A stretch of DNA of 7,942 bases from a virus (Duplodnaviria; Heunggongvirae; Uroviricota; Caudoviricetes). Position numbers and translations under genes: made by a program. This document shows, piece after piece, positions 2,452-7,942 of the stretch. The notes beneath the pieces were generated by a model that saw nothing but the letters and a program-made list of their open reading frames with translations, ran no database searches and had not been told where the DNA came from. Numbering within the stretch: the first letter of the stretch is position 1; every line of letters begins with the position of its first letter. Where the stretch lies: the IMG/VR virus record IMGVR_UViG_2740892235_000013. One strand, 5' to 3'.

Positions 2452-3829
2452 ATGTGGCCTTTCAGAAGAAAAAAAGAGCAGCGCAGCATGACGCTTGATG
2501 AATTTATGGCGCTGGCTGGCACATCGAACACGGGGGCGGGTGAGTACGTATCATCGGGGACAGCGGAATCACTGCCCGCCGTCATGAACGCCGTCACGGT
2601 CATCTCTGAGGCGGTGGCTACCATGCCGTGTTACCTGTACCTGGTACGCAATGAGAAGGGGAAGGAGGCCCGCGAGTGGCTTGATTCTCATCCGGTCGAT
2701 CACATCCTCAACGAGCGCCCGAACGCATGGCAAACCCCCTACCAGTTTAAGCGAATGATGATCCGCCACTGCCTGTTAAACGGTAATGCTTATGCGGTGA
2801 TTCAGTGGGGGCGTGATGGTTTTCCGGTGGCTTTACATCCTTACCCGCCGCAGTCGGTGAACGTGGAGCAGACAGGTGAGCATAACTGGCGCTACTGCAT
2901 CACTGACGCCTACACCGGAAACACCCGCAACTATTTACCGTGGGAGGTTCTCCACCTTCGTTACTCCACGGATGACGGTTTTATGGGGCGCTCACCTGTA
3001 ACCATCTGCCGCGAATCGCTGGGGCTTGGGCTGGCCCAACAACGCCACGGCGCGAGCGTGATGCGTGATGGCATGATGGCGGCAGGGGTTATCACGTCAG
3101 GCGAATGGCTGGACGGCGTGAAGGGCAAACAGGCATTAGCCGCACTGGAACGCTACAAAGGGGCCAGAAACGCCGGAAAAACGCCCATCCTTGAAGGGGG
3201 TATGAGCTATCAGCAGCTGGGCATGAGTAATCAGGATGCTGAATGGCTGGCCTCCCGTCGCTTCACCATTGAAGACATCGCCCGAATGTTCAACGTCTCG
3301 CCGATTTTTTTNNNNNNNNNNTAAAGGGGCCAGAAACGCCGGAAAAACGCCCATCCTTGAAGGTGGCATGAGTTACCAGCAGCTGGGCATGAGTAACCAG
3401 GATGCTGAATGGCTGGCCTCCCGTCGCTTCACCATTGAAGACATCGCCCGAATGTTCAACGTCTCGCCGATTTTTTTGCAGGAATACAGCAACAGCACCT
3501 ACAGCAATTTCAGCGAGGCAAGCCGCGCATTTCTCACCATGACGATGCGCCCGTGGCTGGCGAACTTTGAGCAGCAGATAAAAAACGCCCTGCTGGTGGC
3601 CTCGCCTGTACCTGGTATCCGGTATCAGGTGGAGTTTGACAGCGCGGACCTGTTACGGGCCACACCTGGCGAACGCTTTGCCACCTATGAGCGCGGCATC
3701 AAATCCGGCGTTATGTGTCCGAACGAAGCCCGCGAACGTGAAGGACTGTCACCGCGTGATGGTGGTGATGAGTTCAGCCAGGCATGGAAACAGGAAGTAA
3801 AAATCAGCGAGGGAGAAAAACCGGAATGA
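2452..3829 (+). CDS. Portal protein, HK97 family (about 403 aa once the duplication is collapsed)
   Basis: ATG 2452 is 1 nt after the protease stop. Portal-like sequence throughout (RESLGLGLAQQ, GMSNQDAEWLASRRFTIEDIARMFNVSP, PWLANFEQQI). Frame broken only by the N run at 3312-3321 plus a 155-bp duplication (166 nt net). Stop TGA 3827-3829. Confidence 0.9.
3157..3477. repeat. Tandem near-identical overlap (3157-3311 and 3323-3477) around the 10-N gap at 3312-3321; assembly artefact inside the portal gene
   Basis: The copies differ at 5 positions, all synonymous third-codon changes (ggg/ggt, ggt/ggc, agc/agt, tat/tac, aat/aac). Confidence 0.85.
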
Positions 3830-4460
3830 ACATAGGGCGACTGCGTGACAGGGTAACGATTCAGACCCTGAAACAGACCAGGGATATAACCGGCGAAATA
3901 CTCGAAACGTGGGAGGACAGTCACACACTCTGGGCAAGCGTGAACATGGTCAGCAGCAAGGAGGCCATTTCATCGGGTGCAGAGCTGGCGATTGGTACCG
4001 TAAGGATCTGGATACGGTACCGGAAGGACATCAGCGCCACCAGCCGGATAAAGGTCAATACGGGGCCGCTGGCGGGGCGTGTACTGAATATCATCGGGCA
4101 GCCGCTGCCGGATGCCGCCAGGACACGCCTTGAAATTCNNNNNNNNNNATAACGATTCAGACCCTGAAACAGACCAGAGCCATGACGGGCGAAATACTCG
4201 AAACGTGGGAGGACGGTCACACACTCTGGGCAAGCGTGAACATGATCAGCAGCAAGGAGGCCATTTCATCGGGCGCAGAGCTGGCGATTGGTACCGTAAG
4301 GATCTGGATACGGTACCGGAAGGACATCAACGCCACCAGTCGGATAAAGGTCAGTACGGGGCCGCTGGCGGGGCGTGTACTGAATATCATCGGGCAGCCG
4401 CTGCCGGATGCCGCCAGGACACGCCTTGAAATTCTTTGTCGTGAGGGCGCGGAAAAATGA
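3826..4460 (+). CDS. Head-closure / head-tail joining protein (SPP1 gp16-like family), 112 aa once collapsed
   Basis: ATG 3826 overlaps the portal stop (ATGA). Family-like pattern LRDRVTIQ...GE..ETWED.HTLWASV...S.KEAISSGAELAIGTVRIWIRYRKDI. Frame interrupted by the N run at 4139-4148 plus a 286-bp duplication (296 nt net). Stop TGA 4458-4460. Confidence 0.8.
3854..4434. repeat. Tandem near-identical overlap (3854-4138 and 4150-4434) around the 10-N gap at 4139-4148; assembly artefact inside the head-closure gene
   Basis: About 10 substitutions between copies, including amino-acid changes (DI/AM, S/G, V/I, S/N, N/S) and synonymous changes. Confidence 0.85.
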
Positions 4461-4916
4461 CAGAAGAACTTATCACCCTGGAAGAAGTGAAACTCCATTG
4501 CCGCATCGATGGCGACGATGAAGACCAGTTAATCAGCGGATACATTGCCGCATCGCTTGAGGCGTGCCAGATACACATAGGCAGGCGCTTTGATGACGGG
4601 CTGGAGTTCACGCCAGCCATAAAGATTGGCTGCATGATGTTTATCGCTCACCTGTANNNNNNNNNNTATCGATGGCGACGAGGAAGACCAGTTAATCAGC
4701 GGATACATTGCCGCATCGCTTGAGGCGTGCCAGATACATATAGGCAGGCGCTTTGATGACGGGCTGGAGTTCACGCCAGCCATAAAGATTGGCTGCATGA
4801 TGTTTATCGCTCACCTGTATGAGAATCGCCAGATTGTCGCGGATAACGCAAAAACACGCGTACCCATGACGATTGGCGCACTCTGGACGGCTTACCGTGA
4901 TGTGGGGGTGTACTGA
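4457..4916 (+). CDS. gp6-like head-tail connector protein, 98 aa once collapsed
   Basis: ATG 4457 overlaps the upstream stop (ATGA). N-terminus MTEELITLEEVKLHCRIDGDDEDQLISGYIAASLEA is typical of gp6-like connectors. Frame interrupted by the N run at 4657-4666 plus a 152-bp duplication (163 nt net). Stop TGA 4914-4916. Confidence 0.75.
4505..4819. repeat. Tandem near-identical overlap (4505-4656 and 4668-4819) around the 10-N gap at 4657-4666; assembly artefact inside the connector gene
   Basis: Two substitutions between copies: gat/gag (Asp/Glu) and cac/cat (synonymous). Confidence 0.85.
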
Positions 4917-5356
4917 TGCCGTGGCAACCATTAAGACGATGCACAGAACCAGGCTGTAACAGGCGCGTTAAATCCGGCAAGTGTGAGGAGCACAGGCGGG
5001 CGGCATGGCGTGCAGAGGATGCCAGACGAGGACACCGCCGCGCGCGTGGATATTCCAGACAGTGGGACAAATACCGCGCCATGTATCTGAGTAAAAACCC
5101 GTTATGCGTGCGATGCCTTGAGAAGGGGATATATACGCCCGCCGTGGTGGTGGATCACATTATCCCGATTAATGGCGGTGATGATGTTCTCTTCTGGCCC
5201 GAATGGAACCATCAACCATTGTGCCAGGCGTGTCATAACCAGAAAACGAAATGGCTTGATCCGGCAACAAAAAGCAAGCGTGCCGCAGGTGGATTTCGTG
5301 AAGAGGAAGAACGGGCCGCTAACCGCAATAACTGGATGTATGACGCTGATGAATGA
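4916..5356 (+). CDS. HNH endonuclease (phage packaging-associated type), 146 aa
   Basis: ATG 4916 overlaps the connector stop (TGATG). Cys-rich N-terminus (CTEPGCNRRVKSGKCEEH) and HNH core (VVDHIIPINGG...NHQPLCQACHNQKT). Stop TGA 5354-5356. Confidence 0.9.
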   Translation: MPWQPLRRCTEPGCNRRVKSGKCEEHRRAAWRAEDARRGHRRARGYSRQWDKYRAMYLSKNPLCVRCLEKGIYTPAVVVDHIIPINGGDDVLFWPEWNHQPLCQACHNQKTKWLDPATKSKRAAGGFREEEERAANRNNWMYDADE

Positions 5357-5522
5357 GCGGGAGCAAAACCGCCTTATCCGTGGACTTATAAGGCAGCGTG
5401 ACGCATGGAAGACACAGGAAACAGGGCATAAAGATAAAGCGTCAGGACGCGCAGAACGCATCACAGCGAAGCGATTAACCGACCGTGACCGCGAGGTTAT
5501 GGAATGTTTCCGCAATCGCTGA
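5349..5522 (+). CDS. Small hypothetical protein (57 aa, Arg/Lys-rich)
   Basis: ATG 5349 overlaps the HNH stop by 8 nt (ATGAATGA). Translation MNEREQNRLIRGLIRQRDAWKTQETGHKDKASGRAERITAKRLTDRDREVMECFRNR. No clear RBS, so translation would have to be coupled. No recognisable family. Confidence 0.4.
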   Translation: MNEREQNRLIRGLIRQRDAWKTQETGHKDKASGRAERITAKRLTDRDREVMECFRNR

Positions 5523-5645
5523 TGAGGCTGTATGACGGGGTGGGGGGCGTTTTCAGGACCAACCCGACCCCGCCGGGCACCGAACGCCTCCTCAAATTTT
5601 TATGCACGGGAATTTTTTGAAAAATAATCTGGCGAAAAAATAAGC
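5523..5645. promoter_or_regulatory. Non-coding spacer upstream of terS; candidate cos/packaging-initiation region
   Basis: 123 bp with no ORF. G-run gacggggtggggggcgttttcagg followed by C-rich caacccgaccccgccgggcaccg, then an AT-rich tract (aaatttttatgcacgggaattttttgaaaaataat). Sits between HNH and terS, where cos lies in HK97-type phages. Confidence 0.35.
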
Positions 5646-6002
5646 ATGGCAAGACCACCGAAAGCCCCCGCCTACCTGGATGATATCGCCGTGAAGCAGT
5701 GGCGGGAAAAATCGCGGCAGCTTGCGGAACGGGGAGACCTGACCCCCGCCGACTGGAGCAATCTGGAACTGTATTGTGTCAACTACTCCATTTACCGGAA
5801 AGCCGTTGCAGACCTTGCGGCGCGCGGGTTCAGCATTGTTAACAGTCAGGGCGGCGAGAGCAGAAACCCCGCATTAAGCGCAAAATCCGACGCTGAAAGA
5901 GTGATGATAAAAATGGCCTCCTTGCTCGGTTTTGACCCGATAAGCCGCCGTAAAAATCCACCGGAAACAGAAGAAGAGGACGAGCTTGACCGCCTGGAAT
6001 AA
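5646..6002 (+). CDS. terS: Terminase small subunit, P27 family, 118 aa
   Basis: ATG 5646, stop TAA 6000-6002. P27-family-like pattern (LTPADWSNLELYCVNYSIYRKA...NPALSAKSDAERVMIKMASLLGFDPISRRK) with an acidic C-terminus. Confidence 0.85.
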   Translation: MARPPKAPAYLDDIAVKQWREKSRQLAERGDLTPADWSNLELYCVNYSIYRKAVADLAARGFSIVNSQGGESRNPALSAKSDAERVMIKMASLLGFDPISRRKNPPETEEEDELDRLE

Positions 6003-7647
6003 GTACGCAGAAGACGTAAAAACGGGCAAAATTCCGGCCTGTAAACGGCTGAAACAGGCCGTTAAACGGTACTTTTCGGACCTTGAAAGCCCCCTTTACA
6101 CGTTCGATCGTGAGGTTGTGGAGCGGTTTATTGCCTTTTCCAGGGTGTGCCCGCACGTAAAAGGGCCGATGCGTGGCAGACCCATTGAGCTGGAGCCGTG
6201 GCAGCAGTTCGCCTTTGCGTGCATCCTCGGCTTTAAGGTTAAGGCCACCGGACGGCGCAAATACACGAGCGCCTTTATCGAAGTGCCGCGCAAAAATGCG
6301 AAATCCACGACCGCCGCGATTCTGGCTAACTGGTTTCTGATTATGGAGAACGGGCAGCAGGATATTTACACCGCAGCGGTGAGCCGTGACCAGGCGCGGA
6401 TCGTTTTTGATGATGCGCGTCAGATGTGCCTTTTATCCCGACCGTTACGCAGGCGGGTGAATATTCAGGCCCACAAGGTGATGCACCCGAAAAGCAACAG
6501 CCTGTTAAAGCCGCTGGCAGCAAAAGCGGCAACCATCGAGGGAACAAACCCCAGCCTTTCCATCGTGGACGAATACCACCTACACCCCGATAACGGCGTT
6601 TATTCCGCGCTTGAGCTGGGGATGGGCGCACGTCCCGAAGGGCTGTTATTTGCCATTACCACATCGGGCAGTAACGTCGTTTCAGCCTGTAAACAGCACT
6701 ATGATTATTGCTGCCAGATCCTGGACGGCGAAGAGGTCAATGATTCAATTTTTGTGCTGATTTACGAGCTGGACGACGAAAACGAGGTTGATGATCCGGC
6801 GATGTGGATAAAGGCTAACCCTAACATCGATGTTTCCGTGGATCGTGAAAAACTGGCCTCAACCATCCAGAAAGCGCGGGGTATTCCGTCGCAATGGGTG
6901 GAGATGATGACAAAGCGATTTAATATCTGGTGCCAGGGGGCTACCCCGTGGATGGGTAACGGCGCATGGGCTGAGTGTGCCGGAACGTTCACGGAGGAAG
7001 ATTTACACGGGCAGGAGTGTTACGCGGGGCTGGACTTATCATCAACCAGCGATATTTCCAGCGTGTGCTATGCCTTTCCGGTCGGTAAAAATATCATGCT
7101 GGTTTCCCGTCATTATCTGCCGGAGTTCCAGCTACAGAACCCCGCCAATAAAAACCGCGCTGTCTATCGCCAGTGGGCTAAAGCGGGCTGGATACGCACA
7201 ACGCCAGGTGACTGCATTGATTACGACCGGATCAGAGATGACATCATGCAGGATGCGGAGAAATTTAATATCAGGCTGGTGGGCTTTGATACGTGGAACG
7301 CCACGCATCTCAGGACGCAATTACAGGGGGCTGGTTTTGAGGTGGAGCCGTTCCCGCAAACCTACCTCAGATTCAGTCCGGCGGCGAAATCGTTCGAAGT
7401 TTTTGTTAACCGCAGGGTGATTGTGCATCGTGGCGATCCGGTGTTGTCCTGGTCGATGAGTAACGTCGTGATGCAGAGTGACGCGAACGCCAATATCAAG
7501 CCGAACAAGAAAAAATCACCGAACAAGATAGACCCGAGCGTAGCGGCGCTGATGGCGTTTGGTACATTCCAGGCAGAGCATGAGGATTTTGCTTTTGATA
7601 TAAGCGACAGCCACCGCCAGAAACTGGAAGAATTTAGCGGGGTGTAA
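5986..7647 (+). CDS. terL: Terminase large subunit, 553 aa
   Basis: TTG 5986 is the only start codon in frame after the upstream stop at 5941-5943; it overlaps terS by 17 nt with a purine-rich stretch (gaagaagagga) upstream. N-terminal blocks typical of this terminase family (YAEDVKTGKIPACKRLKQAVKRY, HVKGPMRGRPIELEPWQQF), P-loop-like PRKNAKSTTAA, acidic nuclease-domain residues downstream. Stop TAA 7645-7647. Confidence 0.9.
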   Translation: MTAWNKYAEDVKTGKIPACKRLKQAVKRYFSDLESPLYTFDREVVERFIAFSRVCPHVKGPMRGRPIELEPWQQFAFACILGFKVKATGRRKYTSAFIEVPRKNAKSTTAAILANWFLIMENGQQDIYTAAVSRDQARIVFDDARQMCLLSRPLRRRVNIQAHKVMHPKSNSLLKPLAAKAATIEGTNPSLSIVDEYHLHPDNGVYSALELGMGARPEGLLFAITTSGSNVVSACKQHYDYCCQILDGEEVNDSIFVLIYELDDENEVDDPAMWIKANPNIDVSVDREKLASTIQKARGIPSQWVEMMTKRFNIWCQGATPWMGNGAWAECAGTFTEEDLHGQECYAGLDLSSTSDISSVCYAFPVGKNIMLVSRHYLPEFQLQNPANKNRAVYRQWAKAGWIRTTPGDCIDYDRIRDDIMQDAEKFNIRLVGFDTWNATHLRTQLQGAGFEVEPFPQTYLRFSPAAKSFEVFVNRRVIVHRGDPVLSWSMSNVVMQSDANANIKPNKKKSPNKIDPSVAALMAFGTFQAEHEDFAFDISDSHRQKLEEFSGV

Positions 7648-7660
7648 TGAGGTCAGCAGC

Positions 7661-7942
7661 ATGACAGAAGCCGAAATACTGCGATTAATCCGCCGCGTCT
7701 CTGGAATCAGCCAGCAGGCTGACGAACAGACCACGCAGCCGGACAGCGTGACAGCCGAAAATTATGCGCGTGTTGTTGCTGAGGTGATGCGCCGTGATGG
7801 TATCCAGCTTAATGATGCGGATATGCGCGACATACGGATCCGCGTTCTGGAAATGCTGGCCTACAATCGCCGCGTTGAACTGTATCGGGAGAAGGAGAAA
7901 ATCACGTATCACTGGAAGAAGCCGGAGCGGTTACGGCGGTAA
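7661..7942 (+). CDS. Hypothetical protein (93 aa) immediately downstream of terL
   Basis: ATG 7661 with GAGG 8 nt upstream; stop TAA 7940-7942 at the window edge. Translation MTEAEILRLIRRVSGISQQADEQTT...; no recognisable family. Occupies the position where a portal gene sits in canonical phages. Confidence 0.5.
   Translation: MTEAEILRLIRRVSGISQQADEQTTQPDSVTAENYARVVAEVMRRDGIQLNDADMRDIRIRVLEMLAYNRRVELYREKEKITYHWKKPERLRR

Follow-up and report, generated by a model that had tools for sequence, protein, structure and literature searches.

A predicted cos site between the HNH endonuclease and small terminase genes of an Escherichia coli capsid-forming satellite

The window, the whole stretch of 7,942 nucleotides analysed here, is the capsid and packaging module of an Escherichia coli capsid-forming PICI (cf-PICI) of the EcCIEDL933 type. 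The list of open reading frames and Pfam searches place on its + strand, in this order, genes for a major capsid protein, an S78 prohead protease, a portal protein, a head-completion protein, a gp6-like connector and an HNH endonuclease, followed by an ORF of 60 aa, a gap of 123 bp, a P27-family small terminase (TerS), an HK97-family large terminase (TerL) and an ORF of 93 aa. E. coli O43 RM10042 matches positions 4900-6100 with 100% identity, and a relative is carried by 533 of the 5426 complete E. coli genomes. In RM10042 the module forms the right half of an island of about 15 kb inserted in tqsA; the genes of the island encode an integrase, a RepA helicase, SSB and PerC together with the capsid-protease-portal-connector-HNH-terS-terL module, and no tail or lysis genes were found in its annotation. 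This best-matching locus (L001, about 15 kb, between the two halves of tqsA) has the size, about 10-18 kb, and the gene content of a cf-PICI. The same organisation has been described for capsid-forming PICIs by Alqurainy et al. (10.1101/2022.09.08.507074), according to whom EcCIEDL933 is induced by a helper phage and uses only the tails of the helper. In an O157:H7 element encoding an identical TerS protein, the gap upstream of terS differs at a single base, 5560.

The window itself is a tiled composite, with joins of ten N at 138-147, 1339-1348, 3312-3321, 4139-4148 and 4657-4666. Each piece starts again 130-290 bp upstream of the stop of the previous one, and with identities of 97.9-100% to the RM10042 locus the six pieces look tiled from slightly different alleles. 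Positions 4668-7942 are one continuous piece, which contains the region considered below:

4916-5356, + strand: HNH endonuclease gene (Pfam HNH PF01844, E=1.8e-8; PHROG 144; annotated as HNH in NZ_CP028122)
5340-5522, + strand: small ORF of 60 aa (hypothetical protein WP_000174068; phrog_3173, unknown function, E=7.5e-37)
5523-5645, no strand assigned: non-coding spacer with the cos candidate, between annotated coding sequences
5646-6002, + strand: terS, P27-family small terminase (Pfam Terminase_4, E=1.3e-23)
5986-7647, + strand: terL, HK97-family large terminase (Pfam TerL_ATPase and TerL_nuclease)

In HK97-type phages the cos site lies between the HNH gene and terS, and the HNH protein assists cleavage by the terminase. 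The window presents the same HNH-TerS-TerL context, both in the position of the gap and in the type of terminase, and the product of the gene at 4916-5356 is the accessory nuclease of HK97-type terminases. Between the HNH gene and the gap comes the 60-aa ORF, which overlaps the end of the former by 17 nt and stops at the latter. It is present in Klebsiella and ECO95 relatives and absent from Pasteurella elements; in the cf-PICIs of Enterobacterales it is conserved, with the C-terminal sequence ...RE(L/V)xECFRNR, and its product could be an accessory packaging factor. A search of solved structures by sequence gave no match to the TerS of the window. The capsid gene is preceded by another long non-coding region (251-537), which shows no resemblance to the cos core described below and presumably controls the packaging operon.

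The spacer begins after the stop codon of the small ORF and ends before the ATG of terS at 5646; no other non-coding gap of appreciable size exists in the HNH-terS-terL portion of the operon. The identical RM10042 locus is annotated in the same way around the spacer. The initial annotation, which proposed a cos site here, described the spacer as free of ORFs, and this holds for the + strand, whereas the mechanical list of ORFs contains on the - strand a 53-aa GTG ORF at 5497-5658 that has no support from any annotation. The G-run (ggggtggggggcgttttc, 5537-5554) and the AT-rich tract (5592-5645) lie where they had been placed. Taken alone, the G-run is within chance expectation, with 31 of 200 dinucleotide shuffles of the window giving at least one match at no more than one mismatch; it is significant because it is conserved, positions 5543-5546 being invariant and positions 5538-5542 83-93% conserved in 30 loci from three orders. 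The C-rich segment was also correctly located (cccgaccccgccggg, 5564-5578), but it is not the conserved functional core: most of it falls within a variable linker at 5563-5575, and the conserved C-rich element is the adjacent one at 5579-5591. A 14-nt direct repeat of the latter occurs inside the first codons of terS (5578-5591 CACCGAACGCCTCC and 5656-5669 CACCGAAAGCCCCC, 86%). We treated this repeat as fortuitous; it is not conserved in other lineages and sits on the Pro-rich codons of MARPPKAPA.

Relatives of TerS were gathered from one genome per species (39 loci), from IMG/VR and from phage records; a first scan of IMG/VR with TerS yielded only close E. coli relatives from isolate genomes and served the comparison of lineages. 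Gap-free alignments of a core of 91 bp, 5537-5627, were obtained both for 30 loci of Enterobacterales, Aeromonas and Pasteurellaceae and for a set of 63 unique sequences. In 240 of the 242 related loci the core occurs a single time, just ahead of terS. A profile of the core finds one strong match in the island (E=1.3e-22), the next ones having E>0.05 and lying outside 251-537. The core and the sites predicted within it are the following:

5537-5562, + strand: left cos element, a G-run at 5537-5549 (-54 to -42 from the predicted top-strand nick) followed by TTTTCAGGAC; identity 0.75
5563-5575, + strand: variable linker of fixed length; identity 0.38, zero indels in 63 unique sequences
5576-5627, + strand: conserved right block with the C-rich core, TCAAATTTTTA and a T tract preceded by a GC triplet; identity 0.84
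5581-5590, + strand: predicted 10-nt 3' cohesive end, 5'-CGAACGCCTC-3', from alignment to the HK97 and SfI ends
5592-5602, + strand: near-invariant TCAAATTTTTA immediately right of the predicted nick, 93-100% per column in three orders
5605-5618, + strand: CACGGGAATTTTTT, predicted to be recognised by TerS, with a GC triplet ahead of an A/T tract; aligned to CTAACCCGATTTTTT at HK97 +15 to +29

The mean pairwise identities of the three segments compare with 0.40-0.44 in flanking non-coding sequence and with 0.83, 0.87 and 0.48 at the first, second and third codon positions of terS. In the left element, columns 5543-5546 and 5551-5552 are invariant in the 30 loci; this element would lie on the end packaged last, where it may act as a cosQ-like termination element or as a docking site for HNH or TerL. 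The sequence TCAAATTTTTA at 5592-5602 may provide the context for nicking or constitute an IHF-like site. Together with the two preceding bases it forms (C/A)(C/A)TCAAATTTTTA at 5590-5602, which resembles the IHF consensus WATCAANNNNTTR, and the form seen in Pasteurellaceae, AATCAAATTTTTA, matches this consensus exactly. A host bending protein may take part at 5590-5602, as it does at cosB of lambda.

The two exceptions among the 242 loci are the virion-derived record of vB_KppS-Ant, discussed below, and an element of Shigella flexneri SFBU1023 (2497-2510). The latter carries a deletion of 97 bp between two 7-bp copies of CCCCGCC corresponding to 5569-5575 and 5666-5672 of the window, by which the conserved right block and the first codons of terS were lost. 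Site and TerS are here naturally inactivated together, and the island is therefore probably immobile. A single assembly of Pasteurellaceae bacterium Macca contains at least nine copies of the terS/cos module (L112-L119 and L129), an unusually high load of related elements; in most of them about 180 nt are inserted between the cos core and terS.

We compared the core with cos sites whose ends have been mapped in phages. When the circularised genomes of HK97 and SfV were searched with the profile of the cf-PICI core, the best match in each was the cos junction, on the + strand and collinear. The E-values of the two junctions (0.15 in HK97 and 0.27 in SfV over 77 kb, with the next matches at E>1) are weak in absolute terms, and the argument therefore rests on the rank and position of the matches. 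Significance obtained by mononucleotide shuffling for pairwise alignments of the sites was given no weight, this being a lenient control. With this qualification, the sequence and the architecture of the core appear to match those of the experimentally mapped sites. The HK97 record ends with GGGCAGGGGGGGGG, 32 nt and CGCCGCCAAA and begins with GTTTGAATTTAACGCTAACCCGATTTTTTT, and its first base is the start of the numbering used by Chechik et al. 2024 (PMC11331095), who found that HK97 TerS requires +15 to +29 as the minimal binding site, an A/T tract and a critical C:G pair at +21 being part of it. The ends of HK97 are 10-nt 3' overhangs (PMC11331095; also PMC9410871). In SfI, run-off sequencing from both ends left a gap of 10 nt, TGCCCGCCCC (PMC3636060); this 10-mer sits at positions 8-17 of the SfV record, with GGGGAGGGGCGGG about 41 nt upstream and ATCGTTTTTTTATACCCGCGAAAAATG directly after it. 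Positions -10 to -1 of HK97 and the SfI 10-mer both align to columns 45-54 of the profile, which correspond to 5581-5590 of the window. By this alignment the nicks are predicted at the 5590/5591 boundary of the top strand and the 5580/5581 boundary of the bottom strand, with an uncertainty of 2-3 nt, and the overhang would be of 3' polarity.

The geometry of the predicted site is close to that of both phages. As is predicted for the window, cos of HK97 lies between the HNH gene and terS and combines a G-run some 43-56 nt to the left of the nick, a C-rich stretch in the last 10 nt before the nick, which forms the 3' overhang, and a GC triplet with a T tract, which constitutes the TerS site at +15 to +29. 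The G-run occupies -54 to -42 in the window, -56 to -43 in HK97 and about -54 to -42 in SfV. TerL_ATPase and TerL_nuclease domains are found by Pfam in TerL of the window, in gp2 of HK97 and in TerL of SfV, and the HNH proteins of all three belong to the same family. The distance from the HNH gene to the end differs, being about 320 bp in HK97 and about 235 bp in the window. The TerS of the window and that of SfV are of the same Pfam family (Terminase_4/P27), with 36% identity, whereas no similarity to gp1 of HK97 was detectable by sequence. The assignment of 5605-5618 as the TerS site is thus a prediction transferred from HK97 by analogy, since the TerS of HK97 has no detectable sequence relation to that of the window. 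The 10-nt end of SfV and SfI, TGCCCGCCCC, is nearly that of the cf-PICI consensus RCCCGCCCCC, from which the overhang core of the window's own lineage, CGAACGCCTC, diverges, and it is followed by ATCGTTTTTTTA where the window has TCAAATTTTTA. SfV and SfI differ from the window element in being full-size myoviruses of 37-38 kb, in having a TerS with an extra N-terminal region of about 50 aa, and in the sequence of the site, which is about 59% identical.

HK106 and HK446 are the helpers of EcCIEDL933 (10.1101/2022.09.08.507074); both have a terS with 100% identity to the HK97 gene, and the cos site of HK106 is that of HK97. The satellite site shares its layout with that of HK97 and HK106 at about 52% identity, and differs in the overhang (CGAACGCCTC versus CGCCGCCAAA) and in the TerS site (CACGGGAATTTTTT versus CTAACCCGATTTTTT). 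It is plausible, from these sequences, that cos of the satellite sets the specificity of its packaging relative to the helpers, as had been proposed for this locus. With helper overhang and TerS site both different, the packaging of satellite and helper would stay separate; the sequences fit mutually exclusive packaging.

In lambda, cos consists of the upstream termination element cosQ, the nicking site cosN and the TerS-binding sites of cosB downstream, on the side packaged first, and the predicted site of the window follows the same logic. Lambda differs in having a 12-nt 5' overhang, a winged-helix TerS, gpNu1, with R sites, and IHF sites, and in having no HNH partner. Classical E. coli PICIs (Rpp) and cos SaPIs are, like the window element, satellites with cos-dependent transfer; these use the TerL of the helper together with an Rpp-modified helper TerS or the cos of the helper, whereas the window element has a whole terminase, a capsid and a cos of its own. 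In other cf-PICIs, including KpCIDSM30104 of Klebsiella and Pmp7 and Pmp8 of Pasteurella, the 91-bp core likewise adjoins the start of terS, and its spacing is unchanged. Among them the overhang core and the bases around 5602-5611 vary by lineage, and the elements of Pasteurellaceae lack the small ORF.

Two assemblies of relatives bear on the physical ends of the packaged DNA. The record of vB_KppS-Ant (LR881103) was assembled from Nextera XT reads of DNA from a lysate for which K. pneumoniae DSM 30104 had served as host; the authors named MF417951 as a relative and pointed out that the record is >99% identical to the chromosome of that host (PMC8006926). The record is linear, measures 16.5 kb and presumably corresponds to KpCIDSM30104, the element of He et al. 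It had been described as a filamentous ssDNA prophage (PMC8006926), yet its genes are those of a cf-PICI, and the 2.3-kb gene following terL is annotated as a tape measure protein. LR881103 starts 22 nt before terS and ends in ...GGGGTGGGGGAGGTTTTCAGGAC, and no terminal overlap of 11 nt or more was found in it. Over the 300 bp adjoining each of these ends the chromosome of K. pneumoniae DSM 30104 / ATCC 13883 matches the record at 100% identity, and it has 69 more bases between them, including the overhang predicted for Klebsiella, CACCCGCCCC, which in the predicted junction is followed by CTCAAATTTT. The 69 bp missing from vB_KppS-Ant are centred on the predicted end.

The second, independent case is a chimeric record of 106.5 kb, PQ569648.1 ('Klebsiella phage P12620-1'), of which positions 90645-106503 (15.86 kb) represent another cf-PICI, 84-88% identical to vB_KppS-Ant in the stretches they share and joined at terS codon 2 to unrelated phage sequence. 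The cf-PICI part begins at terS codon 2 and finishes 2 nt short of the stop codon of the small ORF, and is therefore a unit-length genome opened at the same spacer. These two lysate-derived assemblies of relatives, linear and broken in the spacer, are indirect evidence of fixed ends. The record ends of both lie 31-80 nt from the predicted ends, an offset which we assume to reflect the loss of coverage at the ends of linear DNA (Nextera tagmentation for vB_KppS-Ant). Packaged cf-PICI DNA, including that of KpCIDSM30104, is reported to form concatemers via cohesive cos ends (He et al. 2025, 10.1101/2025.02.11.637232); in the literature searched we found no paper locating cos in a cf-PICI or mapping the termini of the window element or of EcCIEDL933. 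No contig ended at the predicted nick in a pattern scan of IMG/VR (119 loci, with three matches near the end of a locus that were not contig ends) or among 32 matches in JGI/ENA metagenome contigs. Such a lack of a pile-up of contig ends is expected, because most copies are integrated.

The position of the conserved block directly upstream of terS invites the explanation that it is only a signal for the expression of terS and terL, such as an internal promoter, a translation-initiation region or an anti-termination site, with cos located elsewhere. A stretch resembling AGGAAA precedes the ATG in most relatives, and one site can do both jobs. The conserved core stops 18 nt upstream of the ATG, however, and the 18 nt adjoining the start codon have an identity of 0.44; moreover, some Pasteurellaceae have 61-179 nt inserted between the core and terS. 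The weak conservation next to the ATG and these insertions argue against a purely translational or promoter role. The spacer was found to contain neither a sigma-70-like promoter on the + strand nor an intrinsic terminator, its only promoter-like match being on the - strand, and an expression signal would not account for the correspondence of the core with phage cos junctions or for the breaks of the lysate assemblies within the spacer; we regard this explanation as improbable. Recognition sites of TerS are commonly found in or near terS, and the P27 family of TerS is not proven to be exclusive to cos systems, so that TerS might instead bind the spacer as a pac site and initiate headful packaging of permuted, terminally redundant DNA. 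Against this stand the HNH partner and the HK97-family TerL, a pair cited from Kala 2014 as the signature of HNH-dependent cos systems, and the alignment of the core with mapped cohesive ends. The virion-derived assembly of vB_KppS-Ant does not close on itself, having no terminal overlap and lacking a defined 69 bp, and the reported concatemers are joined by cohesive ends (10.1101/2025.02.11.637232). A pac site thus appears very improbable.

The remaining explanations can be given hardly any credence. The 287-bp intergenic region at 251-537 upstream of the capsid gene, named in the initial annotation as the alternative, might hold the cos site, leaving the HNH-terS spacer as a relic; but a relic would not keep 84% identity and fixed spacing across three orders, the profile has zero matches at 251-537, with the other matches of the island (E>0.05) located elsewhere, and the assemblies of relatives open at the HNH-terS spacer and not upstream of the capsid gene. 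There is likewise only the slightest chance that the functional unit is a hairpin, a cruciform or a structured RNA formed by the G-run and the C-run. Imperfect inverted repeats do exist (5536-5545 with 5563-5572, and 5543-5551 with 5583-5591), but the best of them has one of its arms in the variable linker. RNAalifold on the 63 unique sequences gave -1.97 kcal/mol with five pairs and zero compensatory changes, and a search of Rfam returned no match; finding no conserved structure, we rejected this reading.

We therefore favour a cos site between the HNH region and terS, as initially proposed: the HK97-type context, the unique and conserved 91-bp core, the profile matches in HK97 and SfV, the linear assemblies of relatives and the reported cohesive-end concatemers all support this location. 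Very probably, the spacer holds a cos site of the HK97/SfV type that is cut by the terminase encoded in the island. By extension from HK97 and SfV, on which the whole mechanism is modelled, induction would lead to excision and replication of the island, and its P27-family TerS would bind the conserved right block downstream of the cut, at the predicted 5605-5618. TerL and the HNH protein of the island would then nick the two strands 10 nt apart, the top strand at 5590|5591 and the bottom strand at 5580|5581, producing the 10-nt 3' overhang 5'-CGAACGCCTC-3'. Packaging would proceed from the terS end through the att junction and the capsid genes, with a second cut at the next cos. Since it would begin at the terS end, the HNH gene and the G-run would be found at the end packaged last.

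The location of the site is one a specialist would have expected, and the present result refines that expectation and is not a surprise. New are the base-level prediction of cos, the 91-bp family consensus, which spans Enterobacterales, Aeromonas and Pasteurellaceae, and the shared geometry of G-run, overhang and TerS site. cf-PICIs package only their own DNA in their own small capsids and cross species on borrowed tails. The prediction could be used in packaging-specificity experiments against the cos of HK97-type helpers, as a compact marker of cf-PICIs, and in directing cos plasmids or engineered cargo into cf-PICI capsids.

Variation within E. coli touches the same part of the site. Differences between lineages cluster at 5584, 5602, 5610-5611 and in the length of the T tract, and track the variants of TerS. 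Recombinants of two E. coli lineages switch parent within 5584-5602, in one direction in L028, L015 and L026 and in reverse in L058; in these recombinants terS remains linked to the right half of the site and HNH to the left. The interval 5584-5602 brackets the predicted nick, and of 11 breakpoint intervals within 1.5 kb on either side it alone is used both ways. Identity in this stretch is also high, so that ordinary homologous exchange could produce the same pattern; the switching may reflect exchange at cos ends or a simple crossover in highly conserved sequence. As a speculative proposal, to which we attach low confidence, the G-run at about -55 to -42, the C-rich 10-nt 3' overhang and the GC triplet with an A/T tract at +15 to +29 might together form a general signature of HNH-dependent terminases, in which the G-run would be the element of HNH-TerL docking or termination and the nick a module boundary for swapping a half made up of head, HNH and G-run against a half made up of TerS site, terS and terL. 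If true, this would explain how satellites diversify their packaging specificity away from that of their helpers, with a cohesive end nearly of the SfV type.
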